Assembly: GCA_047967505.1 (NCBI GenBank) | Contig: CM106538.1 | Origin: Dipteris shenzhenensis | Lineage: Eukaryota | Strand: one strand, 5' to 3' | Length of the DNA stretch: 64,000 nt | Position numbers and translations under genes: made by a program | The notes under the pieces: generated by a model | Seen by the model: the letters and a program-made list of their open reading frames with translations, nothing else | Databases searched by the model: none | Told to the model about the DNA's origin: nothing | In this document: positions 5,601 to 64,000 of the stretch, piece by piece | Layout of the letters: the number at the start of each line of letters is the position of its first letter | Numbering within the stretch: the first letter of the stretch is position 1

Positions 5601-7319
5601 TTAATGGTATGAAAAAAGATGAGTGACAAAAGATCCCAACATTGCCAGAGGGGAAATGGTGAGAACTGATGAGTGCTGAGTGGTGTCTAGCAGTATCTGT
5701 TGGTAGTCGTCCCTGATATGTGTATATCTACGGCATTGTAGCACTAAATGTGCCTCTGTCTCGACTGTCTGTGAATCATAGAATTTGCAAACTCTGGCAT
5801 GTTGTGGCAAATTCAGCCAAGCTCCTTTCCCTATTGCCAAGGTGTGTGATCGTATGCGGAATTTGGCAATATTCTTGCGATAGAGAAGAGGGATGGGAGT
5901 GTTGATGTATGGTTGAGCAGAGGCATCTGATGTCATGAATGATGACCAGCATAGGGGGTTTATTTGATCTTGGTAGTATTCTAACTTTGTCATTTTTTCT
6001 GCTGTCAACCATTGAGCCTGTAGGGTGCATAGTAAGGACAACTAGAATTCTTGTAGATTGACCTTTTCAGGTGGCATAGTCAAGTATGATTCCACTTTCC
6101 ATCTGCTAACCATTTCCTTATGTCTGTCTCCCATCCTATACAGATGATCTTGCTTTTATGGTTTTTTTAAAGTTTCATACTTTCTGTCCATGCTCTGTGT
6201 GGTAATCTATTTGTTGGCATTTGTTGCACATCCACTAGATACTGCATCACTTTGATCAGTGCATGAAACTCAATTGGCCTCCTGCCCATTTCCAAAAGGA
6301 GCATTGAGTAAGGGGTAGTAGCCTTGACTCCTAGATGTCATTGTAGGAATGCGTTCTGCATTTTTTCAATCTCATTCCATGTGGATGGAGAGATGCTACC
6401 TCCCCATACTTCTACTCCATATAGCACTGTTTGAACTACATATATATCAAACAACATATTCTGGATCTTCCAATTCTGGGTGTTAGTGTGCCTACAGTCA
6501 TTTTCAAATTGATAGTTTTTTCCCCAACCTGTATCCAACCTTGTTTGTTCATATTGCCACCATCTGTGGTCGGCTGGTATGTTGATTCCCAAGTATTTAA
6601 AGGTATTGACATATTCAATGGGTTGCCCCTCAAAGCCAATAATAGGAGGATGTTTAGGTTGGGTGGTGCATACTACCATCATTTTGGTTTTGGTGATGTT
6701 AACTTGCAGCCCGATTTCATTGCAAAAGACCTGAAGTGTCTGTAGTAGGTGATGCATGGAATCGGGGTCATAGGAAAAAGAACCACGTCATCTAAATATA
6801 GAAGCAACAGTATTGTCCATAGCCCAAGCTTGGGTCCTTGTATCCCTTCTCTTGCAGCAAATTCAGTTATGAGTTCTTCTAGCTTGTGAATGCAGATTCC
6901 TAACAGTGTACATGAGAGAGGACAGCCTTGTTTTACCCCCATATTACTTTGAAATGTAGCTAACAGTCCATGCTCTTGTTTTAGTCAGCGTAATACTTTC
7001 TTGTAAATTCAGGAGATGCCTATCCTTAATGCCAAGGGGACTCTGAGGTCTTGCATTCTTTTCCATAGGCCCCCTCTCAGGACTGTATCAAATGCCTTCT
7101 CAAAATCTATAAAACAGCACAAAAGAGTTTTTCCTTTTAGTTAGCTTTCATCCATGAGTACTCTTAATGTGACCAGATGATCTGCAGTTTTATGCTCTTT
7201 ATGGAAGCCTGCTTGTCCAGTGGCCCTCTTCTTGGTCTCTTCGGCCCAAGTGCTAATTTTTTCTTCAAGCACTGTGCTAAAAAGTTTAGCTAGTGTGGAG
7301 TTGACCATTATAGTTCTGT

Positions 7320-10810: not shown

Positions 10811-12503
10811 ATTCTATGAATTCGAGTAGCATGACCCATCTATGATGGGTTAGAGACCCACTCGAGTCTCAAGGTGGGATCTTTAAATCTCTTTTGGTCT
10901 CTGTGTTGGGTCTCAAGGTGTAGTGATCCCTGATGTTGAGCAGCATTCACATTCTTTAATTTCACACATATCTACAACATCTTACATTATGTTTAGGCAC
11001 AATCATGATGGGGGAAACAGAATCAATGTGCTCTATTTCATAAATGAAACTTGCATTTAAGAGCTTCTCTATTCATCATGCACCATGGACGATATTTGGG
11101 ATTTTTTTGATATGGTCCACATACCTTAGATTGGGCACCTTTCGTAATAGGTTTGGTGTGCACCACCACTTCTGGTCAAATTCCTTTCATCTCTTTGTAA
11201 GACCATGCTAGCTAGTCACGGTATTCTATTACAAGTGCCTTAAGTTTTGTTTCTTCTTCTTGGTGAGGTGTTTTCCAATTAATACTAATTGTCTTCATCC
11301 CCTTCAAGGGTGAGGTGGATTGCTTTGGTTTTTTCTGATCCCTCATATATTGGAGTCTCAGCAAGGCTAATAGTTTCTTGTACTTCTGAATCTTGTAGTG
11401 ATCTTGGCAATTCTATAGGGGCACTACAATTTGTATAGTTCTTGAAGCAATCTGGTACTTCATGGATATCCACATCTAATTATTTTGAATTTGTTGAATA
11501 GGTGATAACTCATTGGGGGACTTATTATCAACATCACTCCCTTTAGTATGTTGGGGAATTTCTTTTGTTGTCAGGATCACTCTTCATTCTCACATGCAGT
11601 TTGAATTTTTTGAAACTTTTTACATTGGGAATTGTGGGGTAACTGTTCCACTAGCAAAGTATTTCCAAGTAATGGTTCATCTATTTTGCATGCTCCTTCA
11701 AGACCTTTTGGGTACCATTCATGTTTAGGAGGCTCAGTTGCTAGTGGTACTAGCTTGGTGAGGTACAACTCCACAATCCTTTGTTGCACTCTTTCAAACT
11801 CTTGTAGTGCTCAACCTTGGCTTTGTATCAATTTCCAGCTTCATCTTTCTTTCGAGATCTACTACTATTATGTAACTTTGGATGTTTGACTTTGTGCAAC
11901 TCAATAGCCATGAGGGCATGCAAAATGGCTAAATCATTATTGAAGACATGATCTTTCCATTGAGCATTTTTAGCCTCTCTCTCTAGGTGTCATAGTCCAT
12001 AAGAGTCATCATTGTTAATGATAGTCTCTTTTGGATCACTATCCCATTCAAGGTTGGCCATAAACATTGGAAATGTAGGATCAATTGAACTTTCAGACAT
12101 GATGGGAGATCCTACTTTGCATGACTTTTGCATTAATTTATGGGAGGACTAGATCTAGTGCATGGCAATTGTTGATTGTTGGCGCCAATGCTTGGATCCA
12201 ATTGTTGATATTACTTTGTGTGTCACCTACCAAGGCATTTTGTTGTGGGAGGGATGATTTGCTAGATTCTATGGTAGAGGCGGTATCGTCCAATGGTCTC
12301 GGCACAATGGGTTTGATTGCTCCTATCCCCACATTGATTCTCACCCACGATGTCAGGATTTTTTATTGTGAGTTAATCCATACCCCAATCATGGATCGTT
12401 GATGCTTCTCGTACCCAAGGGCTGTTGAGATATCAAGCTCCACTCATGATATGCCAGGGTGACTATTGTGTATTTATGTCACCGACTTGTTAGCTGCAGA
12501 TGC

Positions 12504-13097
12504 ACCCCCATTTCTCTGCTCTTCAGAAATTAGAAGGGCAAACAACTCTTCAAAATCAGGAAATTTTTCATGGACGGCAATGGATGTCCGAAACTGTGCA
12601 TAATCCTTTCCTAGACCATTCACGGTCACAGAAACTAGATCATCATCTTCCACTGGCGACCCAATGGAAGCAAGTGCATCTGAAATTTTCTTCACCTTCA
12701 TGTGGTAGTCATTTATGCTCAAATTTTCTCTCTACACATTGTGCAACTCCTGTTTGAGCTACATTTTCCTGGCTTGCGTATTTGTGCTATACATTTTTGC
12801 CAAAGTATCCCATGCCTCCTTTGGCATACTTGCATCTTGAATATGCACAATCATAGAATCCGAAATACTGATAGACAGCCAGTACATAACTTTGCTGGCT
12901 CTCTCATGCCATCCTTTAAATGCTTGCATTTCCTGTTGATTGGGAACATTAGGAAGAACTGGTTCTTCTTCATTTCCTGTAATGAACTCCCAATAGCCTT
13001 TTCCCATAAGGAAATTCGTCATTCTAAACTTCCATGCCTGGAAGTTGTTCTTGTCAAGCTTTTCTGTGACAATCTGTGAAAGAGAATCAGACGCCAT
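12504..13097 (-). pseudogene. Copia gag N-terminal half (Retrotran_gag_2/UBN2-like), inverted relative to its own element
   Basis: MASDSLSQIVTEKLDKNNFQAWKFRMTNFLMGKGYW...EAWDTLAKMY...SINDYHMKVKKISDALASIG...LLISEEQR lies on the minus strand, while the rest of the polyprotein is on plus. Confidence 0.88.
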
Positions 13098-15463
13098 TAC
13101 AGAACACTGCAAAATATTCTGTCACTACAAAAAACACAGCTTTTGCCTCACACGGGCAGATCTGCAAAACTGACGAAAGTGGTATTTGACCACACAGTCA
13201 CTTCCTAGTGACGATTTTGCATCAACAGGCAACAAGCATGATTTTGCAACTCCCAATATCTCTGCACACAGGCATACGATGCAATTTCTGCGGCAACTTT
13301 TCACTGACGTGCATTTTCTTCAGGAGGAACTTCAAAAGAAACTGTCTTCTACTCAAATGCTGGAAGAGGTAGAGGCAGAGGTAGAGGAGGCTGATTTGCA
13401 GGCCATGGTAGAAATCAGAATATGCAGCAAACTCAAGAAAACCAGTCCTATGGAGGAGGACGTGGTAACTCTAGAGGCAGGGGGAGCCAAAGAGGCCGCG
13501 GTGGATGGCAGAGAGGCCAAAATGCAAACAACAATGTTGAATGCTACTACTGTGGTAAAATGGGTCATATGGCTAAGGACTGCTACAAAAAGCAAAATTA
13601 CATTATGAATGGAAAATTGAAGCAAGGCAATTATGCATCTTCCAGTAGACAGGGCGATGACATAAATGAGCATCTATTTATGGTGCAGCACATGACCAAT
13701 TCTGTGACAAGTGTAGAAGAACGAAATGATGTGTGGTATGTTGACACTGGTGATGATACTGCACATCTTATTGTGCAGATTGGTAAAATTCCTTTGTCTA
13801 TGCAGGATGGGAAAAAGAAATACTTGTCTGATGTATTTCATGTCCCAAACATCACCAAGAACCTGGTTTCTATTGGTCAAATGGTTGAGCAGGGCTTGTA
13901 GGTCAGATTTAATCCTCATGGATGCTTTGTTGAGGATATGAAAAATAACGGTCGCTTGATAGCAAAAGGAAAGAAGAAGGGCAGGATGTTTACGTTGGAT
14001 GCGGACATGCCTGAATTGAGTGCAGCAATGTTTGCACATCGGACCGGTGTAGTTGCAGATATTGATATCTAGCATAAACGCATTGGTCATGTTAATATAC
14101 AATGACTTAGATCAATGCAAGCCCCAAATATTATTGCAGGATTGCCTAAATTCAAGGTTGCAGAAATGCATAAGGTTTGTGAAGCCTGTCAATTTGGAAA
14201 ACAGGTAAGGAAACCATTTCCTAGGCATGTTCAAGAGAGTAAAAAGCCATTGGAATTAATCCATTCTGATGTGTGGACTACTAAAGCTGCATCTATTGGA
14301 GGCTGTCACTATTTTGTCACTTTTATTGATGACTTCAGCAGAAAAGTTTGGGTGTATTTTATGAAAAAGAAAAGTGAAGTGTTTGGGCACTTCAAAGCTT
14401 TTAAAGCTATGGTTGAAAAAGAAATAGGCCTGCAAATAAAATGCCTAAGGTCAGATGGAGGGGGAGAGTACCTCTCAAATGAGTTTGCAAGGTTCCTACA
14501 GGAGCATGGCATAAAGCAGCAATATTCATGCAGTCATACCCCACAGCAAAATGGACTTGCAGAAAGGAAAAACAAGCATATTGGAGAGGTATCTCGGGCC
14601 ATGCTAAATGAGAAAGATCTACCAGATTATTATTGGGCTGAAGCAGTTGCTACAGCAGTTTACATAATGAACATGATTCCCACTCCAAATATGGGATGAC
14701 AGGCTATAAGCCTATTTTAGTTCCTTTGGAGCAGAATGTGAAGCTGAGCACAGATGCAGGTGAGCTTCTGGAAGACCCTACTATGTACAGATGCATAGTA
14801 GGAAGTTTGATTTATATGACTATTACCAGGCCAGATTTAAGCTATGTTGTTGGATTGGTAAGTCAGTTTATGTAGGCTCCAAGGAAACTGCATTTGGATG
14901 CGGCTAGATGCATACTCACGTATGTGAAGTCCACATTGTAGTATGGACTATTTTATGAGGCTGGGGTTCAGATACAGTTGCATGGATACACTGATGCTGA
15001 TTGGGCTGGTAGTACTTCTGATAGACGATCTACCAGTGGATATGTGTTCTCTTTTGGGAGTGCTACAGTCACTTGGAGCAGTAAGAAATAGCCTACAGTT
15101 GCCTTGTCGGAGCACAGAGGCTGAGTACAGGGGTGCAGCAATGGCTACATGCGAGGTAGCTTGGTTGCATAAGCTACTCTATGATATGCATCAGTCTACA
15201 GATGGGCCATTTGTCATTTATTGTGACAACATGAGCAGTATACACTTAGCAAATAACCTAGTCTATCATGCTAGGACAAAGCAGATTGAGGTGCATTATC
15301 ACTATGTGCGGGAGAAGGTTTTACTAGGTCTTATTGATCTAGTTTATGTCAGCACAGAGGATCAGGTCGCTGACATATTCACGAAGACATTGGGCGCAGA
15401 GAAGCTGCGCAAGTTCAGAGACCTGCTTGGTGTGCAAGAATTGGGATTGAGCTCAAGGGGGAG

Positions 15464-15812: not shown

Positions 15813-18800
15813 AGGGCATTTGAGAACACTTGATAGGTTGCCTTGGGGAGATCCAAGACTCTGAACTAGAGGGAAAAGCATAGCCCTACTACCTTTGTGG
15901 ATACCCAATCCACTGTGCCCAAGGGTTTTGTGCATGAATCATTTGCAAGGCAAATGTTAAAATGAGATTTCTTCATTGGTGGGAGACACGATGTATCATA
16001 GATATACTTTGATAGAACATTCACCTCCATCTACAATGGCTTGGACCTTATCATGTGCTTTATGGATCAAAGGCATGGTGATATTGCTTATGTCATGTCT
16101 TTCACCCAATCGGACTAGGATGTCTTCTGTTTATTCCACATGTGGAGGGAGATTTGATGATTCAACCCAATTCTTGAAACTCACCCAAAGGTTGGGACAG
16201 TGCTATAAGAAGATTTCAATGGGATGGAGACATGACAACTCAAGATGCTTGAGAGCGCTTCACCTTCCAGTTGGCATTGTGGAGCATTGTGCTATGGCCC
16301 TAGTGGATGAACATAGGCACAATCATGGTGTCGAGACTTGTGGATCCAAGTCAAGGATTTGATCTTGTGCTTGGTTATCGACTTCAAATTGGGCTTGTTC
16401 CTTCTCCAGCCATTGTCAAACTGCTTGAAATCAAGCCGTCTCTAATTTAGCACCGGGGTATGAAGCATTCTTGATAAGTGGATCTGAATTGGAGGTTGCA
16501 GTACATCGTGCTTCTTTGCTTGGCAAAGGAATTGGCGCTTGTGCTTTCTTTTGGAGAATATTTTTTGCATGGATAGGAGCTAAATCCTTGGCTGCCTCTT
16601 TTTGTTGCCATGTGATGACATTTATTGGTGTTGATAGAGTGCTTCTGGGCCCTACACTTTGTTTGATCAATGCCAATGATGTGCATTGGAACATTAAGCT
16701 TAGCCTCATTATGTTGCGGGGGTCTAGACTTGAGGGGAAAATCCATGCAAGAATGGACAATGCCACAATGGGTTGAAAAGTAGTGGGGCTACCATGATGG
16801 GTTCTCTCCACAACTGTAGCCCTTGATTGGTGCTAGAAATGTGTTTGGTCAGACTTGATTTGCATAGATTGGTATCAATCCTTTTGCTCCTTCCACATAA
16901 TACATTGGGTACTCATCCTCGTATTCAATTGTGGATCCACATCTTCGGCTTGAAGTTGTTGTAGTGGAAGTGCTGGAGGAGGGGACTTGGCGCTCTTGCA
17001 TATTGTTGTGGGTTTCTGAGTAGCTATGGAGCTATTTGGATTGGAATAGGATTCAATCTTGGAGCTGATGGTGCTTGCACAAATTTTAGTTGCCTATATG
17101 TTAGAATGGGTGGTGGTTGATATAATTGAGGTCGAGGTGGGTTGTTGTGCATGTTGAACATGCAATTTCTCTCATCGTGCCCACTGACTACACAAATATG
17201 ACATCATAGCCTTGGAGGTTAATTTGATTGTTTATTGATCCTAGACCTCAAGACGATGCATTCATTTTTTTGTATGGTTTTCCATGTAATGTGTACACCA
17301 GAAATTTTTGCACCTTGGATGTGTTGGAGGTTGTGCTTGAGATACGTGAAGCTTTTGCTCCATTGCTTGCATCATTTTGTGTTTTAGTTTCATGGTCATG
17401 GCTAACAAGTGACCTTCATCAGATATTTTTGTAGTTGATTTAGATTTGACTTTTTGGAGCATTTGTCCTTGTTGTCACCACTATTAGAGTTAGAATCCAT
17501 CATGCCAACTTCAATGTCCACAGTTGTCACATGAGCAGCACTGAAAGTCTTGTAAGTGCTTATCTTTTTCATTTATTTGTGAATCTTCTTGTAAGTGCTT
17601 ATCTTTTTCATTTATTTGTGAATCTTCTTTTTCAAACAAAAAATAAACCAAACCATCGGGTATTTGTCATTTGGGTGTGGCTTGCATTTGGCAATTAGGC
17701 ACTTCATTTGGCCCAGATACATGCAGACTTCTTCTCGACGGCCTTGTTTGATGTTGCCTAGTTGGAGAGCAGGGTCATCTTGAAGGCATTCCGTTTAGAA
17801 TCGCCACTTGAACTGGCTTAAAAGGAGGCCCATGTGGCATGTTCCTCAACCGTAAGGTCTAAGTACCATTTGGAGACTTCGTCAACCAATGCCATAGGGA
17901 GCCAAGTAGCTTTGGTCTTGTTAGATTGCTCTACAAACAGCATCAAAGAGTTAAAGGAACATCTCTCAATCACTTGGCCATTGTACTTAGAAAGTTCAAG
18001 CTTTCCTAGGGTCTTATTCCATGCTTGTTGAAGTTTGGGTGGTTGAAGAAGTTGTTGCCCTCATTGTCCAAGTCAAGATCATCATCACCATGATGACAAT
18101 TTGCCATGTTGCGAATTTGATGAGGATGAGGGTTTTGATTAAGTGGAGGAGGAGGATTCAGTGAGAGGAAGGTTGTCATAGATTTTGACTGGATCATAAT
18201 TGCATGATCATAATTGCATGCACGCTTGTTGAGTGTTTGATTGAGTGCATCCTCCTTTGGTCATACAAACTACAATCCAATCTTGTTGCCTTGTTCATGG
18301 ACACCATCCATCAGAGAAATGCCTCCTGATTTTTACCATGCTTAACGAAACTCATCCCAACTCTAGGGATAGAGAGTGTCTTGTTGATCCTATTTTTATC
18401 AACAAGGAATACCAACCCTTGGGATAAAGACTTTCTCAGTACTTTCGGGTTCCCACCACCACGGGGTAGGTATCATTGCATTAGGAAATGCCCATGGTGG
18501 TTCAAATGTTTTAGAAAAACTACAATCCAATCTTGTTTCCTTTTTGATGGACACCATCCATGAAAGAAACTTGTCTCGATTCTTACCATGCTTGACATGC
18601 TTAGAGTAAAAGTGATTATGATTTCAGAGAACCCCTACAGGAGTAAAAGTGATTAACTATGCAATGTCTTAGTAGTTTTATCTTAATTTATAAATCTAAA
18701 ATCAAGTTTTTAGAAATGGCTTTTTATTGTTTTTATTCTTTAATTAAGGAGGGTGCCTTATGTAAGATGTTTTATAGTTTTAGGAATTTGCAATGTTCGT

Positions 18801-20290
18801 GCCTGTTCATGAGAAACTCATTGATCGTGCTTGGTTTATGATGGAGAAGCCAAAGAGCTGCCACCTTGTTATCACTTTAGCAAAAGTTTGAATGCTAATA
18901 CACACTCTGATGATGATGAAGGGTATATATGGGGATTCTCATAGTATTAAGTGCAGACAATACACATCAATCGAGCTACTTTATTTACCAATCAAAGAAA
19001 GCTAGATGATAAGTTTGCAAGAAAGTTATATGAGGATGCAAGGCAGGCCAAAACACGAGCTTTGAGTAATATCATGCTATGTTCAACGTCATTCAAGAAG
19101 CTTGCAAGTGATGATCCAGTGTTATATGATATGTCTTTCTAAAATCAGGCAGACTTCTTTACAACATTTGAGGGATTCATATAGTCTGACATTGTTTGTG
19201 AAGCGGCACTTTATGAGAGCAAATACAAGGATGATGATGAAAAGTATATGCTATCTAGAAACAAATTCCTTGAAAGGTGCAGGTTTGGGGCGATTGATGG
19301 GCAACACTTTTGTGAGGCATGTAGAATTGCGTTCGAGGAGAGTAGAAGAGGAAACATATCATCCAATAAGTACATGCAAAAGTTTGCAAGAGTCATCTCT
19401 TATATTTGTCTATTCATAGATGACTCGAAGTATATATTGGAATCCCTCAGGATCAATGATGAATCTTTTCAAAAGAAGAAGAAGTCAACTCATTGGGAGG
19501 TTCTTCTTAAAGCAAGAGAGTTATGGATTGGGTGCAAGAAGCCACTATCCTCAAAGGGTAAGAGACCCACTTTGGAGGACTTAGTAAAGCGGGCACAATT
19601 TTATAGGTGCTTGACAGATGTTGTAAATTATGTTCAGCCAAGTCTTCTAGATATCACAAGAGCCGTCAATAAATACAAGGATTACACGTGTATCATATTT
19701 TGTCTTGCAAAATCTGTCAATGTATTGTGGATGTAAGCATTGCATTCGAATCTAGTATTATATTATTTGAGTCACCTGAACATGAGGTAAACAAGAAGTA
19801 GAAAGCTATAAAGATTATGTCAATTCTTTGGTGGAGGCCATTAAGATACAGGACTGGCAAGATAGTAAGTTGGTTTGCCAGAAGTTTTGAATGGAGAATG
19901 CTTTTTGGTAAGAAGAACAAGCATGGAAGCCTTGAAGAAATAGTCAACCAAGAAGTAAAGGTTGAAGCTGCATATGGAGCATTAAAGTTTTTGCTTCGTT
20001 CAAATGAAGAGTTGGTGGATCAAGAGTATCAGGAGGACAAGAAAAAATCATGTGGACTAGGACAAATGGTTGGCAAGAACTAGGCCTCGCAATGGATAAA
20101 ATCATGGGATAAAGATGCAGCACCAACAAAGGAACTTTGAGCTAAGATGCCTATTTGTATAGAGATGATGTATACACATATAAAGTAAAATGCCATGAAA
20201 AACAAGATGCAACTTCAAGTCCTTAATGAGTCTTTCATGTTCTCCTATGACATTGGTTTGTCAAAGGATAATTCAAATTATGTTATTATC

Positions 20291-21068
20291 AAGGGAGTTG
20301 ATACTGAAAGATTTATGGTCGCAATGGGTAGTGAACCTTGGGAGAACCCATATGCATTTTTCTTTCATGAACTATAGGATTTGTTAGTGTCAGGGATTGT
20401 TCAGCTTATGCAGACTGTGATACAAGGTCCTATGGCAAGACAACCAAGAGCAACATTTGTCATGTTTATCACACGTGCACAACGGGATGCATTGTTTGCC
20501 AGTTTGAAATTTGCATTTAGGGGTGTGATTGGAAAGGTGTTGCATGGTATGGTATTGCAGCATGAGCATAGTTATCATAGTGACACTGGCATCCAAATCT
20601 TGCAACCCATGATGGCTACATTTATGCATAGGGGTGATGGTCCATTATTTGAAGTTCCCCAAAAGAGTCTTCAGTTCTTTTTCCAAGGGAGTCGATACTG
20701 AAAGATTTATGGCCGCAATGGGTAGTGAACCTTGGGAGAACCCATATGCATTTGTCTTTAATGAACTACAGGATCTATCAGTGTCAGGGATTGTTCAGCT
20801 TATATGAACTGTGATATAGGGTCCTATGGCAAGACAACCAAGAGCAACATTTGTCATGTTTATCACAGGTGCACAACGGGATGCATTGTTTGCTAGTTTG
20901 AAATTTGCATTCAAGGGTGTGATTGGAGAGGTGTTGCATGGTATGGTATTGCAACATGAGCATGGTTATCATAGTGACACTGGCATCCAAACCTTGCAAC
21001 CCATGATGGTTGCATTTATGCATAGGGGTGATGGTCCACAATTTGAAGTTCTTCAGCTCTTTTCCCAA
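20291..21068 (+). repeat. Tandem duplication of about 394 bp inside the DGQH ORF
   Basis: aagggag(t/c)(t/c)gatactgaaagatttatgg at 20291 and 20685. Both copies encode GPMARQPRATFVMFIT...HRGDGP. Confidence 0.9.
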
Positions 21069-21391
21069 GAGAGAGAAACACTAAAAATAATCTCCTCTTA
21101 TCTTGATTATCGACATCCAAATCATCCTTCCTTGATAGAAGAGATGGTAGAAGCATATTGGATAAAAGGTTGGAATGTGGCATTGTATGGAATGGGGTTA
21201 GTTGTAGAGACTATATTACAAAAAGAGTCGATGTGGTTGTCATTGATGCCCTCCATTGGATTGAGTATTCTTCAACTAGTAAGACTGTTGCAATGGCAAT
21301 ACGCTTGAGAAGTTCACTTGGGAAGCCATTTCACACCTGGTCTACACAAATGAGGTATCTCTCGATGCATTAGAAGCTTTGGAAGACTATA

Positions 21392-22010
21392 AAAGAGGAC
21401 ATACCCACTGCACAAAATGAAGCCTGGAAGGAAAAAGACGAAGCAGCACTATCACTCATTGGCTTGCACTTGGGTCCAAACATAATTTATCATATAGACT
21501 CTATGGATCATGCCAAAGATGCATGGGATGAGTTGAACACAGTTCTGGTGCAAAAGCCAAAAACCAAGAAATTCATCTTAAGATTGAATTCTATGGTTTG
21601 CACATGAGCTTCAATGAATCCATGGCACAATTTGTCAACAAGATCAAAAGCATTATGACCCAACTAGAAGGCATAAATGCAAAAGTAGGAGAAAAGGATG
21701 CACTTGCAATCCTCTTGAAAAGCATGCCTAAAGAGTACAGTGCACTGACAACCACTTTGAAGAATTTTCCAGATCCAAAGTTTGAGGAATGTGTATCATC
21801 TCTTCTTGAGAAAGAATGAGAGTTGAAGGCATCAACATCGACATCTACATCAACATGTAGCAACAATAATGATAAGCAAGCATTGTTCAGTAAAACATCA
21901 ACAAAGTGTTACCATTGCAAAAGGATGGGTCACTATCAAAGAGACTGCAGACCAAAGAACAAACCAAAGTGTCACCAATGCAAGAAGTTGGGAGACACAA
22001 GGAAGAAGAT
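21392..22010 (+). pseudogene. Copia-type gag with two zinc knuckles (gag-only non-autonomous element), lying in an inverted segment
   Basis: EAWKEKDEAALSLIGLHL...AKDAWDEL; ESMAQFVNKIKSIMTQLEGI...LLKSMPKEY; CYHCKRMGHYQRDC; CHQCKKLG. No pol sequence follows before the PPT and LTR. Confidence 0.85.
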
Positions 22011-22304
22011 TGCAGATTGAAGAACCAATAGGTCAACTACATGGAGTCATCATCAAGCCATAAGCAGAATGACAACAACAACATGTATTGAGAAGCAAAA
22101 GCCTTTCCACCTTTAGCCTATGTTCTTGTAATCAAACCTGACCACCTGCAAGTAGCCATGCAAGCACTCAGGGGAGGTATTAACATGTAAAAACCACACT
22201 AGACCACCTCAAGTAGCAATGTATGCACTAAGGGGAGGTGATAGATTTGTAACTCACATCTGACCACCTTGTGGTAGCCAATGGATCATGGCACCAAGGG
22301 GAGG

Positions 22305-22651
22305 TGTTGAGGAATATGGTGCCATGAGCACATAATTAGAGGCTAAGATATGGTATAGGAATGTATTAAAGTAGCCACCCTAGGATGAGGACTACATGAT
22401 GTGAGCATGTGGATCGAGGCTAGATCGAGGACATTCACAAGGAGAGATGTGGATCAGAGGATCCCACATGTGTTGACTAGTCTAAGGGCCTATAAGAGAA
22501 GCCTATCATGTATTGTTGATTACACACATTGCAATAGATTGAGTATTGCCTACCATATGTCTTTCTCATGGAGTTTCTTCTACGGTTTGATCCCCCTTGA
22601 TCTTTTGCTAATTCCATGTTGCATTAGGAGAGCATGATCCACATTTTCTCA
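22305..22651 (+). mobile_element. 3' LTR of the gag-only copia-type element
   Basis: TG...CA termini, preceded by the PPT aaggggagg and followed by TTCCC. Reverse-complement copy at 23940-24279. Confidence 0.88.
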
Positions 22652-23939
22652 TTCCCTTCCACTGCAACAATTTGTCTTTCTTCTTCCTTGTTGCCTTCTA
22701 TTATGACCAATGGAACCTCAATAACCCTTTGCAACCTCTCATCCATTTTCTTCTTTGTGCATAGTTTTGAATGTGAGCTCTCTGATTTAGAGCTACTAGT
22801 TTTAGATTCCCTAGATGCAAAGCTACTATCCTCAGTAGTAGAGCCTAGGTTTTCTATGACTTTCTCACTTGAGTCGTCTTGCACTTTTTTGCTCAATTCC
22901 ACATTTGAGCTTCCTTCATCTTTACTATAAAATGTGGGCGTGCAACTGAAGTAAGTATGAATCTGGTAATGTCTACTTGCGTACAACAAAATTGACTTGA
23001 AAGGCACGTAGAGCTCAAAAAGGTGATCACTTTTCCTTTTTGGAGTGCATGCAAATTCTTTTTGGATTGAAAGTTATGGCTTGTCGAAGTTTTTGTGAAG
23101 AGAGAGTGGGCATGATGATGTGGCACAAGGATTCATATGCAGCATTCAAAACAGTGCTAAGATGCCAGCATGACACGTGTCATGATAAGCATGTGTGCCA
23201 TGTGGCACTCTACTGACCATTGATAAAATGGAAGCTAACCACAGTTAACATGACCATCTCTATCTACCATGTGGCATTTCCACATGGCCTAAGGTTATGA
23301 AACCTTTGGCTTGTGGAAATCTACGATGCAACGGCAACAGGGATGGTTGAGGAGAAAGAGACGATGATGATGAGGATGGCTGAAAAGAGATGTAAAGCTG
23401 AACGTGAAGGGGTTGCTAGTGTTGAAGTTGTAGAAGCTTGTTGTTGAAGAGGCTATGGTGGAGAGGCATGCATGCTATCGGCTAGGTGGTTGGCAACCCC
23501 GGTTGGTTGGAGGTTTGTCGTAGTAGCTTAACGCAATTGCCATGAGGTGCAACGGTGGCTGTTGGTAGGCGCTGCTATGGAATAGAGACCAATGGAAACA
23601 TACATCATTCAGAGACAAGGTTGGGGCACTGTGAGGCGGCCAGGATGACATGATGGAGCTGCCCAGCAAGGCTGACTATTGCAACATTGGTGTCGCGGGA
23701 GAGTCGTTAGTGCAGATGGGTGGTTGTGGCATGCAGGTCGATGATGCTTGGTACTTGTATCTCTTGTGTCCATTGCTGTAGGAGCTGCTATTGTCGAGCA
23801 GTACCTTTGGTCATGGCTGAAGCTCCTTGGTTCATGCTTTGTTCCTGTGATGAATTGGCCATCGCTATCTTTGATTGTTGAGGATTTCTCTCTATCTAAT
23901 CAATGGAGACATACCCCAAACATACTAGCTCTGATACCA

Positions 23940-24279
23940 TGAGAAATGTGGATCGTGCTCTCCTAGTGCAACATGGAATTCGCAAAAGATCAAGGGGGAT
24001 CAAACCGTACAAGAAACTACATGAGAGAGATATATGGTAGGCAATACTCAATCTATTGCAATGTGTGTAATCAACAATACATGATAGGCTTCTTATATAA
24101 AGAGAGCTCGTAGAATAGTCGACACTTGTGGGATCCTCTGGTCCACATCTCTCCTTATAAATGTTCTTGATCCACATCCTCACATCATGTAGTCCACATC
24201 TTAGGGTGGCTACTTTAATACATTCCTATACCATACCTTAGCCTCTAATTATGTCCTCATGGCACCATATTGCTCAACA
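23940..24279 (-). mobile_element. 5' LTR of the same gag-only element, with tRNA-iMet PBS
   Basis: The minus strand reads TGTTGAGCAATATGG...TTTCTCA and then TGGTATCAGAGC (23928-23939). Flanked by GGGAA at 24280-24284. Confidence 0.88.
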
Positions 24280-25297
24280 GGGAAAGGGAAAGTAGTGGAG
24301 GTCCAAATGCAGAGCATGAAACCTGAAAAAGAGGTCATTTTAAAGGGAGAGGGACGTGGACTAAAGGATGCAATACTAGTAAATAAAGTAGATGTACTAC
24401 TAGCGAGTAAACGAAATGTACTACCAAGTAATGAGGAGCTTGTAGTTGACACCTTGCAGACTCATCCATGCTGTGATGCACTACTAGGAAGTGATGAGCC
24501 TATATTTGAAAGCTCTGAGACCGCCGGTCTAGAGCAGATGGAGCTTATACTTGGAAGCACCCAGACTGGTCTAGAGTAGCTTGTTAGTCAAGATCTTGGT
24601 AGTGAACCTTTTGAGATGGCTACCTCGATCACTACTGCACGATCTCAAGAACTGAAACTTGACAAAATATATCAGGCCTTGTTGGATGTAGGCTATAGTG
24701 CTATAGGATCAAAAGAGAAAATTGAACGTCTAAGGAAAGAGGAGCTTGAGAAATGTGAAGAAGGAAAGAATGTAAACTAGAGTGTCTTTCCTATATGTAA
24801 ATCCTATTTTGAAATAAAGAAGTCTTTTTTGCTTTCTCAATTATGTGTATGAATATTTTTTTAATAGTTTGTTTTAATGGTGTATGAATTTTTTTAAATC
24901 ATTTATTTTAACACTTTAATAATGAACATCAAGACCAATATGGTGTCCGTGTTTAAAAATTTGTTTTGGTGTTTTTCAACATATTTTTGAATAATTTATT
25001 TTTGTAATGACCAAATGGTGGCAATGTAATTTTATTTTAATATTTCAATGGTGAATATTTTAGCTTAAATATTTAAATTGAGTATTTTTTTTAAAGTAAA
25101 ATAAAATGCCGATTGTTTTATTTTATATTTCAATGGGGAATATTTTAGCTTAATTATTTTAGTTTAATAATGTAATTCTCATGTGTCTAAGGATCAAAAT
25201 TATTCTATGCAAGTGGGTGTGTAAAGTGTTGGCTTAATTGTTTTGTTTTAATATTTTAATGGTGAATATCACTAGCAAGAACATGTATATGTACACC

Positions 25298-28198
25298 ATG
25301 GATGGAACCTATGTGGAAACATGATGAAGAGAATGCTCATGACATGTACCTCAAGTCAATTAGGTTCCAAGGTAGATTGGCTTGGACTCATAGATAGAAT
25401 CTTGAGTGAGTGTGCATTTCTCTCTCGTACTCAACAATACATGATAGGCCTCTTATATAGAGAGTGCCCTTGGAATAGTCAACACTTGTGGGATCCTTTG
25501 GTCCACATCTCTCCTTGTGGATATCCTTGATCCACATCTCCACTTCATGTAGTCCACATCCTAGGGTGGCTACTTTAATTCTTTCCTATACCATACCTTT
25601 GCCTCTAATTCATGTGCTCATGGCACCATATCTCAACACCTCCCGTTGGTGCCATGATCCATTGGCTACCGCAAGGTGGTCAAATGTGAGTTTACATTCC
25701 ATCACCTCCCCTTAGTGCATGCATTGCTACTTAAGGTGGTCAAGTGTGGCTTTTACAAGATCAAATCCTCCCCTAGGTGCTTACATGACTTTCAGGTGGT
25801 CAGGTTTGATTTACAAACATGTGGGCTAAAGGTGGCAAGGATGTTGCTTCTCAATACATGTTGTCGATGGTGTTTTCTTCTTTGCTTGATGTAGCTCGAT
25901 GCATGATGCTTTGTTCTTCCATGTGCCTTAATACTTTATGTGTGGACACCATGTTCTATGCTATGGCCATCTCATACACTTATGCTTTTGGCATGCTTAT
26001 GACAATGATGTGTGCATTCATGCTTTGATTGGTCATTTGTTGCAAAGGTCTTACCAATTGATTTCTTTCAATATTGGTAGTGTCTAATTACTAACAATGA
26101 TTTTGACTTGACAAGCGCGTAGAGCTAAACAAGAGGATCACTTTTTTTTTTGGGAGCATGTGCAAATTCCTCTTGGATTGTAAGTTACGCCTTGTCGAAG
26201 TTTTTCTAAAGAAGAGGGCTTTTGATGATGTGGCATAGGGGGCATTCACATGCTGCAATTCCAAACTGTGCTTATGAAGGGACTGTGTGCTTAGGTGGCA
26301 CGGAGTTGACTGAACCCTTGACCTAACCCAGCTGATTGGTGATTTTAACTTAACCATACTCTTAACTAACGTTTAAGATATTCAACCATGGTAAATCTCT
26401 GTCAACTGGCAGACCACTCCTCGGGTGAGTGGTGACCCTAGGGTAAGGTTACTGGAGTGCCACGTGACATCTCCTAAGGTTGTGAACCTTGGAGATGCAG
26501 AGATGGCACGGTGGCGTCGACTGCTGAGTGGCCATGGACGGAGGTCGAATGGACCTTGACGGTCAAGTTGTTGGTGCTTGGAGACCGGTTAACATTGGTC
26601 GTTGTTGGATGAGTCCAACCAAGTCGAGGACGGTGGGCTGGCCGCTACTCGTCTGGCATTGCTGCGAGGTTATCCCTCAAGGTAGAGAATTGCTTAGCTG
26701 GTAGAGGCCGTGAGCAAGGAACATCGTGAGTAGGTCGTTGCTTCTACATTGGAGTCTCCGTCTAGCCAGGGGTTGTTTGATCACAAGGAGGATCATGGGA
26801 GTAGAGGATCGGGTGCCAGTTTGGAGCTTGCAGGTCCTTGAAGGAGGTTTTGGCCATTGAGTTGGCATCGCTGCTCGTGGGTTGGCTACTGTTGTAGGTG
26901 ATATGCTGGTAGTTTGTAGAGGCTTGGAGCCCAGAGACCATAGCTAGCTTGGAGTCATTGCAGTTGCATGGTTGTTGGTGGTGCTGCAAGGCAAAAGGTC
27001 ATCTTTGCTGCTCGAAGCCTTAGGTCGTTGATGCGGTTGAGTTTGGAGCACTAGTCAACTAGACCGTTGGCTGTTGGGAGCCGAGAGTCATGGCATTGGT
27101 TGTTGATGCAGTTGAGTTTGGAGCACTACTCAACTGGAGCGTTGGCTTTTGGGAGCCGAGAGTCATGGCATTGGAGTCGCTGATTGCTATTGTGCTTGCT
27201 TCTTTGTTGAAGGCCCGCTTGTGTCATTTAGGAGGGCACTAGTTTGAACTAGCCAACTGAGTCATTGTAAGCCACCATGACCTTTGGAGCTGCTATGCAA
27301 GGTATATCTTTGAAGGGTCCCTCTCTCCAGCTAGAATAGGAAGGTCTCACTCTTATCAGAACACTAGACATTTTCTCTCTTGCAAAAGAGTAAGGAGAAT
27401 AGAGTATCTTGTACTCTCAAGGATCTAAATTCCTAGATCTCTCCCTCATGAAAAATCTCAGAGGAAATCTCCCAACAGAAATCTCTCAAAGAAATGTACG
27501 GACGGAAATCTCTCAAGAAAAACTCTCACTCTCAATGAAAATCTCTTGCAAATATCTCTCTTGCTCTCAGGGAAGGCTAAGAAATGCTCTCTATCTCTTT
27601 CTCTCAAATGGAATCGAAGAACAATACAAGGAATCACTCAATCTCACATAGACGAAAATCTCTCATGATGAACGGAAATTTCTCTATCACTCAACAGAAA
27701 TTTTCTCTCATGGAAGAGAAAACTCGATCTCTCAATCTCTCAAACTGTCACACTCTCTCATACTCTCGCATACAGATTGTAGGGCCTCAGTGGAAGGCAA
27801 AGGAGTTGTGATACCATGACAAAGCATGCATACCTCAAGATCTATGGAGCGCTCTAAGGTGGATGGAACCTGTGTAGAAACATGATGAAGAGAATGCTCA
27901 TAACATGTACCTCAAGTCAATTAGGTTCCAAGAAAGATTAGCTTGGACTCATAGACAGAATCTTGAGTGAGTGTGCATTTCTCTCTTGTACTCAACAATA
28001 CATGATAGGCCTCTTATATAGAGAGTGCCCTTGGAATAGTCAACACTTGTGGATCCTCTGGTCCACATCTCTCCTTGTAGATATCCTTAATCCACATCTC
28101 CACATCATGTAGTCCACATCCTAGGGTGGCTACTTTAATTCTTTCCTATACCATACCTTTGCCTCTAATTCGTGTGCTCATGGCACCATATCTCAACA
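25298..28198 (-). mobile_element. Non-autonomous LTR retroelement related to the 22305/23940 LTR family; no recognisable pol
   Basis: Near-identical LTRs at about 25298-25638 (left end truncated) and 27817-28198. PBS TGGTATCACAAC at 27805-27816, with a PPT next to 25639. Internal 26100-26260 resembles 22990-23150. Confidence 0.82.
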
Positions 28199-31797: not shown

Positions 31798-34005
31798 TGT
31801 TAGAAATGACCCAACAGAGAGTACACACAGCGGAAGATTGATAGTAATGCCCAAGAGCTCACACAGTGTGCATGTGGGATGTGGAATCACAAACTTCTTT
31901 ACTTATATGCATAAAATATATATGCAGACTCATCAATAGACAATGAACCAGCCAGATAGAGAAACGACCAAAATAATATATTTCTGTCCAAAATTATGGA
32001 CACAATACAAAAGAGATAGATTCAGAGTCCCACCAATGGTGTGGTCCTTTGATCTTACCACAAGGTGCTTCTGTTATTTGCTAGCTATCTCTAGACTCAA
32101 GCCGCCCACGTGCTCTACCTCGAGCTTCTATAGACTTTTTGTCCAGAACGTTCCTCTCCACTTTGCTATCTAGAAACCAGACTAGGTGGGCTGCCACTCA
32201 AGCTCAGTCAGCAACTCCTTTAGGGTCACCTTCACCTCTTGTGGATAGGCCCAAGACTTGCCTTCTTGCTGCTCTTGTCTACTGTCAGAGGGCTCTGTCA
32301 GAGGGCTACTCCAGAGAATATGATGATCACAACACCTTGCTGCCCTAGAAGACAACTGAGTAGCCTCTAGGGAACTTAGTCTACAGCACACCTTCCACTC
32401 TCCTTTACCCCTTGTGTGAGGCCCAAGGGAGTGGCTTTTGGCTGATCCTGTGTGCTCCTGAACTTGCTGGATAGTTGGATGTTGAATGAGGGTTGGAGGA
32501 CCTCCTTTTATAGGGCACAAGGCCTACCCCAAAAAATCAACCAACAGCCTGGACCCAAATAGGCCAACCAGGCTGCTATAAAACTACCCTAAAAGGGCTC
32601 ACTTAACCAAGGCCATTGGCCCACAAAACTAGGGCTTTGGCCCTCACTTCAAGGCCTGATGCCCTCCTATATATGCAAGTTCCAGCCCCCTTTTGCCCTG
32701 CCATTTCTAGGCATGGTAGGCTGGCTGGAATTAGCCCTACACCTGTTTGACCAAGCTACTAGTAACCACTACCATATTGCGCTTCTGCCAGACCCTTCTT
32801 CAGTGTCGTACAGCCCCGTACATCCTGTTGAGTCATCGCGCTTTTCATGGGGATCCGTTGCAGGCCGTACGCCTGCCATGAAGCACCCCAATTTTCTGAG
32901 GCCTAAATACTTCAAATCTTAACTTTCTAGATCTAATAAATTTGGTAAGGTAGTTTCTAATAAATAAAGTACAATAGTATCCATTTCTACTGATGTAAGC
33001 ATAGAATTCTATATCGAGTATTGTTTGTCTATTTTGAGAATCCTCATCCTCAGTGTCCAATGTAGTAGTTTGAAAATGTCCAAGCCAGGGTCTTTATTCA
33101 GCCCTCAACCTGAGACTACCTTACATTTGGCAGTCCATTGGAGCAGTAGGAAGGTGTGATTGCGGGGAAGGTGTGTTTGTGGGGAACCACTACGAAGGCT
33201 ATAGAAAGTCTAGTAGATCAACACAGGCTGAAGTGTTTTGAAGTTCCCACTAGGAGGTAGGAGAACATACTCAAAAATCTCTTACAAAATGCCTTCACAG
33301 CCTAGCTAGTAGGTACTTCTGTAATTCACTGGCTGTCTCTAGACTCAAGCCGCCCGCGTGCTCCACCTCGAGCTTCTATAGAATTTTCGTCCATAATGAT
33401 CCTCTCCACCTTGCTGTTTGGAAACTAGCCTAGGTGGGCTACCACTCAAGCTCAGTCAGCAACTCCTTCAGGGTCACCTTCACCTCCTATGGATAGGCCC
33501 AAGACTTGCCTTCTTGCTGCTCCTGTCTATTGTTAGAGGGCTACTCCAGAGAATATGATGATCACAACACCTTTCTACCCTACAAGACAGCCGACCAGCC
33601 TCTAAGGAACTTAGTTTGCAACACACCTTCCACTCTCCTTCACCCCCAGTGTGAGGCCCAAGGGAGTGGCTTCTGGCTGCTCCTGTCTGCTCTTGAACTT
33701 GCTGGATAGTTGGATGTTGAATGAGGGCTAGAGGACCTCCTTTTATAGGGCACAATTCCTACCCCAAAAAACCGACCAACAACTGGTCGAGCAGGCTACT
33801 ATAGAACTACCCTAAAAGGGCTCACTTAACTAGGGCCACTAGCCCACAAAACTAGGGCTTTGGCCCTCACTTCAAGGCCTGATGCCCTCTTATATATGCA
33901 AGGTCCAGCCCCCTTTTGCCCTGCCATTTCTGGGCATGGTAGGCTAGCTGGAATCAGCCCTACCAGCCCTACACCTGGCCGACCAAGTTGCTAGTAACCC
34001 TTGCC
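31798..34005 (-). mobile_element. LTR-derived sequence of the same family as the 35751 solo LTR, with an internal duplication of about 680 bp
   Basis: 31798-32035 is the reverse complement of 36490-36730. 32088-32768 resembles 33338-33998. Confidence 0.7.
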
Positions 34006-40226: not shown

Positions 40227-40937
40227 TATCTTTTAATGTGGCTTTGTCAAACCCAACATCATCCAACTTGCATATCCACACAAATTCCGATTATGAATTC
40301 AACCCTTCCAATCAAAATAATATGGTAGGTCATCATGTATTTACAAAGAAGCATGGGTATATTACATACTCATTGATCCAATTCATAGCTCTAGTTAGGG
40401 AAACCTCATCATCTGTAGTAGGTGCAATGAAGGAAGTTCTCACCAATATATGCATGTTGCCACCTTTCATTCCGCAAGGGGCACATCATTTCTTGAATAA
40501 TTTTCTTGCTTGCTCATGGATATCCCACATAATTATTTAAAAGAAAAGAATTCAAAGGGTAGTGTTGGGGTCGTCAAAGCCACATTAACATATCTTTTAA
40601 TGTGGCTTTGACAACCCCAACATCATCCAACTTGCACATCCACACAAATTTCGATTATGTATTCAACCCTTCCAATCAAAATAATATGGTACGTCATCAT
40701 GTATTTACAAAGAAGCATGGGTATATTTAAGAACATACTCATTGATCCAATTCATAGCTCCAGTTAGGGAAACCTCATCATCTGTAGTAGGTGCAATGAA
40801 GGAAGTTCTCACCAACATATGCATGTTGCCACCTTTCCTTCCACAAGGGGCACATCATTTCTTGAATAATTTTCTTGCTTGCTCATGGATATCCCACATA
40901 ATTATTTAAAAGAAAAGAATTCAAAGAGTAGTGTTGA
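40227..40937. repeat. Tandem duplication of about 340 bp with a hairpin at the junction
   Basis: 40227-40567 resembles 40590-40937. The inverted repeat 40563-40588 / 40597-40622 sits at the junction. Confidence 0.9.
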
Positions 40938-54081: not shown

Positions 54082-54975
54082 TCACAAGTTGTAAATCAAT
54101 CTCTTCATCACTATTGGCATCCTCAACACTGTCTTCCAATTCAACCTTTTGCTTGCCTTTATCCACATATTGCTCCTCCTCAATCTACCACTCCATGGAC
54201 TCATACTATCAACACTTTCCTCATGTTGTGATGGTCTTGACATCACTTTACTTGAGGGTCTAGCTTGCTGTAATTTCATATTTTCAACCTTTGGCATGTA
54301 CTCATCTTCTACAACAATTGGTTTGGGCTCATAATATGCTTAAACTTCACATCCTGACTTTCATATACTTGTCTAGTGATGGGATCATAGCATTTATATC
54401 CCTTTCTCTCAACCGGATATCCCAAAAATACACATTTGATAGCTCGTCTCCAATTTCTTCCTTAACTCACTTGGAACATGCACATAAGAAACACAACCAA
54501 ACACTTTCAAATAAGCCAAGGTTGGGTTGTACCCATAAAGCTTTTCAAAAGGTGTCAACCCATGTATGGCATCTATGGGTGTTCTATTCATGATCGTATG
54601 CACCACTTTAGCCCAAAAACTTAAAGGCATATTCATCTCATCCATCATAGCTTTAGCCATGTCACCAATCACCCTATTCTTCCTTTCGCAATGGGGTTTT
54701 GTTGAGGAGTGTATCTACAAGTGACCCATGTCTTAATGCCTTGAGCATCTAGAAACTCATCAATTTCATAGGACATATAGTCACCACCATTGTCCGAATG
54801 AAAACACTTGATATAACACCCAAGCTCCTTCTCTATCATTCTTTTGGATTGGCAAAACACTTGAAAGGCGTCACTTTTAGCTTTCAAAAAATACACCCAT
54901 GTCATCCGGTCGTAATCACCTATAAAAGTGATGTAATACCTTGCTCCCTCGGGTGCTGTATGATTCATTGGTCCC
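54082..54975 (-). mobile_element. Ty1/copia integrase fragment
   Basis: GARYYITFIGDYDRMTWVYFLKAKSDAF...FHSDNGGDY...YTPQQNPIA; FWAKVVHT...NRTP...LKVFGCVSYVHVP. Confidence 0.85.
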
Positions 54976-63086: not shown

Positions 63087-64000
63087 CGATTGCGTCCTCC
63101 AACTTTTTTTGTTACACTTTCTGCAGGAGAAAAACTATGGAAGCCTCTAATTGAAGCAATACAAAAACTAAACACAAATACCACACCCAACGTGGACATA
63201 AATCAACAAGCTCGAATAAGACATCTATTTCGCTCTGATCCCGTCACTACAGCCCAATAGTATGTGCACAAATTCCAAGCCCTTAAAAACGTTATAAAAA
63301 AAGACCACAACATTCTGGGAAAATTGAATGACTTCTTCTTCATTATGGAATTCCAAAATAGAGGTAGTCAACACGATCACGGACTATTGTGGGTCAAAAA
63401 TGCACCCATCTTTGGAATTTCTTCAAACACTGAAATTGAGCAATTTGCAGAAAGATACATATCAACAAACAGTTTGAAACTTCCAATTGAACTACAACAA
63501 ATTCAAACACATAGGCATCGTAAGACATGCTTCAAGAGAAAACAAAAATGTTGTTTTGGATTTCCACGCGCTCCCATGTCCTCCACAAAAGTCTTGCTTC
63601 CATTAAAATTTGAAGATCGTAACGACATTTTAAAAAAACTAGCTCTCATTAACTCTACATTGTCACAAGATACAACATTAACTTTAGACTATCATGGATT
63701 CTTGCAAACTATCAACCTAACATAGGATGAATACATAAACAGTCTACGAGCATCTATTTCACAACCTACTCTTTTCTTGAGAAGAGAACCAAAAGATATA
63801 TACACACAAACAACTTCAACCCTCATTTATTAAAATTATGGGGAGCAAATATAGATGTTCAATTTATAGTGAATCCACATGGAGTAGCAGCTTATTGTAC
63901 ATCTTACATGACTAAAATTGACAAAGAAACCACATTAGCAGTTAAGGAAGCTTTGTCCCAAAGCATTAACACAAATGCTGCCCCTAATGAATGCATACGA
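63087..64000 (+). mobile_element. Helitron-superfamily Rep (HUH endonuclease) domain, Helentron/Helitron2-like; disrupted and running off the window end
   Basis: Motif I PTFFVTLSA, then DPVT. Motif II EFQNRGSQHDHGLLW (about 63348-63392). Also QTHRHRKTC and CCFGFP. Motif III ANIDVQFIVNPHGVAAYCTSYMTK. Two in-frame stops and one frameshift. Confidence 0.92.

Follow-up and report, generated by a model that had tools for sequence, protein, structure and literature searches.

A decayed, rearranged gene copy in Dipteris shenzhenensis from an uncharacterised eukaryotic protein family with a candidate DGQHR/DndB-like domain

We analyzed a 64,000-nucleotide stretch of one strand of Dipteris shenzhenensis DNA (GenBank assembly GCA_047967505.1, contig CM106538.1; hereafter the window), in which an initial annotation, made from the letters alone, had proposed the broken gene of a ParB-like protein. 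The remnant of this gene has its body on the plus strand (18894-21268) and its tail on the minus strand (22956-22696), and it is a pseudogene that is unable to make protein. Our best explanation, to which we assign a probability of roughly 60%, is that the locus represents a dead and rearranged gene copy from an uncharacterised eukaryotic family whose N-terminal domain belongs to a divergent, DGQHR/DndB-like branch of the ParB/Sulfiredoxin (Srx) fold. The family is real and, as far as our literature and database searches reach, undescribed; a text search of the literature, within the portions of articles open to it, found no description of a eukaryotic DGQHR-type family.

Every motif string quoted in the initial annotation is present where it was placed. 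Its claim that a single frame carries the N-terminal motifs also stands: TNQRKLD (18987-19007), NIMLC (19068-19082), AIDGQHF (19290-19310) and ESLRIN (19440-19457) all occupy the frame at window positions divisible by 3, as does RHPNHPSLIEEMVEAYWIKGWNVALYGMG at 21111-21197, but KRVDVVVID (21221-21247) lies in another frame. When all relatives described below were compared with the window by tblastn, one gene copy was found, at 18894-21266. The locus is laid out as follows.

18894-19691, plus strand: N-terminal domain, candidate DGQHR-like ParB/Srx fold; a single frame, covered in tblastn by 13 relatives.
19802-20146, plus strand: linker region, read in a second frame and interrupted by stops at 20081 and 20138; 19802-20083 has no Pfam match.
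20147-20683, plus strand: first part of the C-terminal domain, in the second frame, including duplication copy 1 (20290-20683); tblastn matches to P0015, P0014, P0004, P0003 and other relatives.
20684-21268, plus strand: remainder of the C-terminal domain, including duplication copy 2 (20684-21077); first frame to about 21200, with RHPNHPS...YGMG at 21111-21197.
21194-21268, plus strand: end of the C-terminal domain, RVDVVVIDALHWIEY, in the other frame, which continues after about 21200.
21374-22020, plus strand: Ty1/copia gag fragment with a CCHC zinc knuckle (Pfam), an intruder.
22051-22646, minus strand: copy of a dispersed repeat (repeat comparison), flanked by the gag fragment and the inverted tail.
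22696-22956, minus strand: Ser/Glu-rich tail, from TYFSCTPTFYSKDE... to ...RVIEVPLVIIE, matched by P0004 residues 189-265 (BLASTP).
24285-24780, plus strand: third piece of the gene as reconstructed in the initial annotation; no Pfam match, and beyond the end of P0004, the sole relative that reaches the tail.

The verdict of a pseudogene, already given in the initial annotation, is borne out by ten internal stops (18942, 18948, 19140, 19182, 20081, 20138, 20186, 20375, 20805 and 20817), by at least three changes of frame, by a duplication and by the inverted tail; the window copy is dead and without function. The frame shifts first close to 19736/19802, then at the junction of the duplication copies and again close to 21200. 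The 394-bp tandem duplication reported earlier was confirmed at 20290-20683 and 20684-21077, with 88% identity over the full 394 bp without gaps and 93% between 20290-20589 and 20684-20983. Gene homology ends after ...VVVIDALHWIEY (to 21268) and restarts on the minus strand at 22956-22696, so that the copia gag fragment and one copy of the dispersed repeat (22051-22646) separate gene body from tail. The minus-strand piece of the earlier reconstruction was thus rightly chosen: residues 189-265 of P0004 align there within the frame 22627-23073 (BLASTP E 4e-5, with 34% identity across 88 columns); the region is of biased composition. Its first piece, 18786-21391, does contain the gene body, but the last stretch is Ty1/copia gag. 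No convincing inverted repeat was found in a search of both rearrangement breakpoints. One relative, P0011, tracks the window's shifted frame (ESMWLSLMPSIGLS) for 18 residues within 20994-21268, at a place where P0004 and P0012 instead agree with the other frame (RVDVVVIDALHWIEY). P0011 and the window copy therefore appear, from their aligned sequences, to have a frameshift in common, which suggests that an already broken copy was propagated. Just upstream of the gene lies an 80-nt direct repeat (18267-18346 and 18517-18596), with arms of 84% identity spaced 250 bp apart.

To collect relatives, 1.84 billion representative proteins were searched exhaustively by phmmer, with one frame of 18951-21308 as query and X at the stops. 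The search yielded 22 proteins at E <= 0.001, of which 14 reach E <= 1e-10; the 22 divide evenly between matches to the N-terminal part (11) and to the C-terminal part (11). All are short (59-269 aa) except P0020, which has 1097 aa and matches the window in the N-domain only, at 32% identity. None of the 22 spans both parts, the linker frame 19802-20146 having lain outside the phmmer query; that both parts belong to a single protein is an arrangement suggested by the window copy only. A word-index search with the window's 183-aa frame found no homolog of greater length at E <= 0.001, and a language-model search with this same intact frame gave no usable match. When residues 1-300 of P0020 were used in the word-index search, P0024 and P0025 were the only relatives found, and none of the three proteins listed in that search is named or has a Pfam domain assigned. 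Ten relatives scanned against Pfam had no relevant match even at E <= 10. No relative was confirmed in metagenome data, which were scanned with the P0020 group and with P0003, or in a viral scan, and tblastn of P0020 against a phage collection returned nothing at E <= 10. A family profile likewise had no match at E <= 10 in five bacterial genomes, a result that carries no evidential weight.

The motifs noted in the window copy are conserved across the family, as was checked for the QR pair, DGQH and the downstream Asn. In the family alignment TNQRxL is kept in all seven members that cover it, DGQH in seven of eight (the remaining one has DSQH), and the Asn of ESxRxN, some 50 residues past DGQH, in 10/10. 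In the available text of PMC4619093, the DGQHR domain is defined by a QR pair, the DGQHR motif itself and FxxxN. The initial annotation had placed the gene in the DGQHR/DndB branch, and we compared profiles by hhalign with sets of 19 PF14072 (DndB) proteins, 11 TIGR03187 proteins, 20 PF03235 domains and 24 PF01555 proteins, 12 of the latter being ParB-type fusions. The family N-domain scored 28.1 against the DndB set (P 0.0034) and 29.3 against the TIGR03187 set (P 0.0023). The aligned block pairs the family's NQRxLN...TL with the bacterial QRxLN...strand, and in greedy and global alignments DGQH is also paired with DGQHR.

Against these scores must be set the rather unlikely alternative that the N-domain is unrelated to ParB/Srx, and that QR, DGQH and Asn resemble the DGQHR motifs by chance, in a lineage-specific protein whose fold is a different and perhaps a new one. 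Evidence against chance comes from cutting the family profile into two non-overlapping halves. The QR half (columns 1-60) found DndB positions 51-95 (P 0.0047) and TIGR03187 positions 50-80 (P 0.013), and the DGQH half (columns 61-200) found DndB 110-124 (P 0.0054), TIGR03187 108-122 (P 0.0074) and the DGQQR block of PF03235 (P 0.033). Each half thus found its expected block, and the blocks are colinear; the two halves reached the DGQHR sets at P 0.005-0.013, whereas controls gave P 0.27-0.93, including 0.27-0.84 for the family against methyltransferases (0.47 in the N-domain run) and 0.36 for DndB against methyltransferases. Column shuffling did not reproduce the signal either, as 0/122 shuffles reached the real local score (highest 18.6) and 0/119 the real global score. 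Since the hypothesis was set before testing, no library-wide correction for multiple testing is needed. Accepted pairs within the superfamily score no better than the family does, with P 0.009 for DndB against ParB_N and P 0.018 for PF03235 (DUF262) against ParB_N.

Several observations weigh against a ParB/Srx assignment or qualify the tests for it. The fifth residue of the DGQHR motif is Ile or Phe in 8/8 members and Arg in none, while D, G, Q and R are invariant in the 19-sequence DndB set. In the global alignment the invariant Asn stands four columns off the template Asn, and no aromatic residue matches the F of FxxxN. The probability that hhalign itself reports for the N-domain is only 8-13%, the family alignment is shallow, and the PF14072 and TIGR03187 sets represent one family, so that the tests against them are not independent. 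Library, sequence and fold searches were all blank: Pfam, NCBIfam and PADLOC returned nothing for the window copy at E <= 10, PDB sequences offered nothing relevant for the N-domain, and unfiltered hidden Markov models (HMMs) built from bacterial DndB, TIGR03187 and DUF262 scored family members at no more than 4.5 bits, within the range of shuffled decoys. An AlphaFold2 model of the N-domain from a 14-sequence alignment is mostly helical and of low confidence, with a mean predicted local distance difference test (pLDDT) score of 55.1; its only well-scored part, at pLDDT 80-87, is DGQH at a strand-to-helix junction, a placement that counts in favor of the ParB/Srx fold. Foldseek and VIA-align listed no ParB/Srx chain, which is no evidence of another fold. 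On balance, the profile evidence lends modest support to a likeness to DGQHR/DndB, and we consider that the N-domain probably has a ParB/Srx fold. What holds of the earlier assignment is the profile-profile likeness in the right register; the defining Arg and any match in an HMM library are missing. Because the Arg is absent in 8/8 members, the family is DGQHR-like and falls outside the DGQHR family as defined.

The family resembles DGQHR/DndB (TIGR03187, PF14072) in the succession of a QR followed by L-N, a helix, a hydrophobic strand and (V/I)DGQH, together with a small residue seven positions further along. It differs in the Ile/Phe that replaces Arg, in about 40 extra residues between the strand and DGQH, in the unaligned F of FxxxN and in the lack of an HMM match above any threshold; moreover, the family is eukaryotic, whereas known DGQHR/DndB proteins come mostly from prokaryotic modification or defence loci. 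Its DGQH block also aligns with the DGQQR block of GmrS/DUF262 (PF03235, GmrSD_N; P 0.033-0.053), but the QR block does not (P 0.54), and the family has no HNH/DUF1524 partner domain. To the phage and bacterial fusions of ParB_N with N6_N4_Mtase (PF02195 and PF01555) the likeness is at most one of domain order, a possible ParB fold followed by an alpha/beta domain; there is no profile likeness (P 0.43-0.93 for the front and 0.54-0.7 for the back), and the family lacks DPPY. DUF3723 (PF12520), whose function is unknown as is that of our family, supplied the clusters nearest to the P0020 N-domain in a language-model search; no HMM match accompanies this link, which comes from a single uncalibrated search with the distant relative P0020 and not with the window sequence.

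The fusion proteins bear on the C-terminal domain, in which the initial annotation had seen, by eye, the spacing of beta-class amino-methyltransferase motifs. It is quite unlikely, in our estimate, that this domain is a beta-class N6/N4 DNA methyltransferase that has lost catalysis and that the protein descends from a phage-type ParB-methyltransferase fusion. A 15-sequence C-domain profile compared by hhalign with two PF01555 sets gave P 0.056-0.7, in a register unlike the one proposed by eye. The absence of a DPPY/SPPY motif, correctly noted before, extends to the family: none of the 15 aligned C-domain sequences shows [DNS]PP[YFW] on inspection, the candidate strand reading FFFDELQDL, while a regular expression finds a motif of this type in 23/25 bacterial open reading frames (ORFs) picked as PF01555 matches. 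The C-domain has no match in Pfam, and its profile met only eS10 among PDB sequences, at E 1.2. An AlphaFold2 model of P0004 (pLDDT 54.6) is confident for residues 8-96 only, as strand-helix-strand-helix-hairpin, and has no clear methyltransferase neighbor. Nor does the C-domain profile resemble the C-terminal half of P0020 (P 0.48). The methyltransferase reading of the earlier work thus finds no support, and the C-domain is best described as an alpha/beta domain of no assigned affinity.

The locus sits in repeat-rich DNA whose longest frame is no more than 205 aa, and whose copia and Helitron pieces suggest a plant genome. A Pfam scan of 125 long frames detected five transposable-element fragments in the window:

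6341-6984, minus strand: reverse transcriptase fragments (Pfam).
12477-13121, minus strand: copia gag (Pfam).
13395-14696, plus strand: CCHC, Pol_BBD and integrase domains (Pfam).
54412-54974, minus strand: integrase and retroviral SH3-like domain (Pfam).
63261-63722, plus strand: Helitron helicase-like N-terminal piece (Pfam, below cut-off).

The fragments at 12477-13121 and 13395-14696 are two copia pieces lying head to head, and the other three are likewise remains of decayed mobile elements. The gag fragment beside the gene is itself well supported, with Retrotran_gag_2 in the ORFs 21374-21607 (E 1e-9, 38.6 bits) and 21532-21819 (E 6e-13, 49.0 bits; Pfam cut-off 27 for both) and zf-CCHC in 21820-22020 (E 9.7e-5, 22.7 bits; cut-off 20.8). 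On visual inspection, the gag pattern can be followed back to about 21310. This proximity, some 40-100 bp past the C-domain and on the same strand, in a window rich in copia pieces, might be taken to mean that the gene is an extra ORF of the adjacent Ty1/copia element, upstream of gag and perhaps fused to it. We regard this as highly improbable: P0004 and P0012 continue from ...IDxPHxIxFF into the acidic tail and never into gag, and since the window's own tail lies on the opposite strand 1.7 kb off, the adjacency to gag is a product of rearrangement. Furthermore, no pair of long terminal repeats (LTRs) brackets the region, and the gag fragment ends after the knuckle, with no pol found behind it by Pfam. 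The fragment at 21374-22020 is foreign to the gene.

Carriage of the gene by a transposon, as the initial annotation envisaged, is likewise not demonstrated, as repeat comparison within the window found neither an LTR pair nor a pair of terminal inverted repeats bracketing it. The dispersed repeat next to the inverted tail measures 0.3-0.6 kb and occurs in four copies within 6 kb (22051-22646, 23944-24279, 25299-25891 and 27860-28170); the first is inverted relative to the other three, the arms are up to 94% complementary, and their frames have no Pfam match. Further along, tandem repeats occupy 32063-33963 (period about 1235-1248 bp, 88-92% identity) and 40364-40936 (period 369 bp, 98% identity).

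A different, tentative link to mobile DNA is offered by P0020. When its residues 1-250 were used in a language-model feature search, 30 matches were returned, the best with a score of 0.95 and 180/256 features shared; 12 of the 30 belong to DUF3723 clusters from Ascomycota, and the other 18 to clusters without a name, most commonly of Basidiomycota. DUF3723 is a conserved accessory gene, of unknown function, in the giant transposons of fungi called Starship elements, according to the available text of PMC9156397. The N-domain family could then be a distant branch of fungal DUF3723 (PF12520), and the window copy what is left of a cargo-carrying mobile element, or of a gene that had been transferred out of such an element. 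The relatives of the window copy, mostly short broken frames, would accord with this, as would the frameshift of P0011, such sharing being expected of passively copied DNA. We nevertheless consider it unlikely. Pfam gave no PF12520 match at E <= 10 for P0020, P0024, P0025, P0019, P0023 or the window copy; language-model scores are uncalibrated for parts of proteins, so that these matches are leads only; the window's own 183-aa frame gave none that was usable; and P0020 resembles the window in the N-domain alone and at low identity. Among the 125 scanned window frames there is also no Starship hallmark such as the DUF3435 tyrosine recombinase. Improbable too, in our view, is the broader proposal that Arg-less DGQHR-like ParB-fold proteins form a family spread across eukaryotes in association with mobile elements, with DUF3723 as its fungal wing and the window copy as one of its relics.

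Returning to the DGQHR/DndB-like reading, an intact member of the family would begin with an N-domain of about 230 residues in a divergent ParB/Sulfiredoxin fold. It is predicted to open with a QRxLN turn, followed by a helix and a hydrophobic strand; next would come a helical insert of about 40 residues and then a strand closing with (V/I)DGQH, where a further helix begins. Behind the N-domain one would expect a linker, then the alpha/beta domain at the C-terminal side, and finally a Ser/Glu-rich tail. In ParB-fold proteins tested for it, mutation of the conserved Arg of the P-motif abolishes nucleotide binding, as given in the available text of PMC12704722. As the family is without the Arg that nucleotide binding needs, we infer that its N-domain may be a binding module without nucleoside triphosphate (NTP) switching. 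It would then serve to bind DNA or protein, acting as neither an NTP-driven switch nor a nuclease.

Proteins of the ParB/Srx fold in eukaryotes are known mainly as sulfiredoxin, and the DGQHR/DndB branch is regarded as prokaryotic. If the reading favored here is true, a multi-copy eukaryotic family with a DGQHR-like domain that lacks the nucleotide-binding Arg would represent a new use of the ParB/Srx fold. A survey of ParB-fold proteins from 2025 (PMC12704722) uses none of the terms 'plant', 'fungi' and 'transpos' in its main text, in the version accessible, while its supplements may list such proteins. In a text search of the literature open to it, no paper mentioned both DUF3723 and ParB. 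Should the DUF3723 lead also prove true, a conserved Starship gene would acquire a testable function, and DUF3723 would gain its first fold and mechanism, those of a ParB-type DNA-handling module. It would also mean that plants once hosted comparable cargo-carrying elements, or received genes from them.

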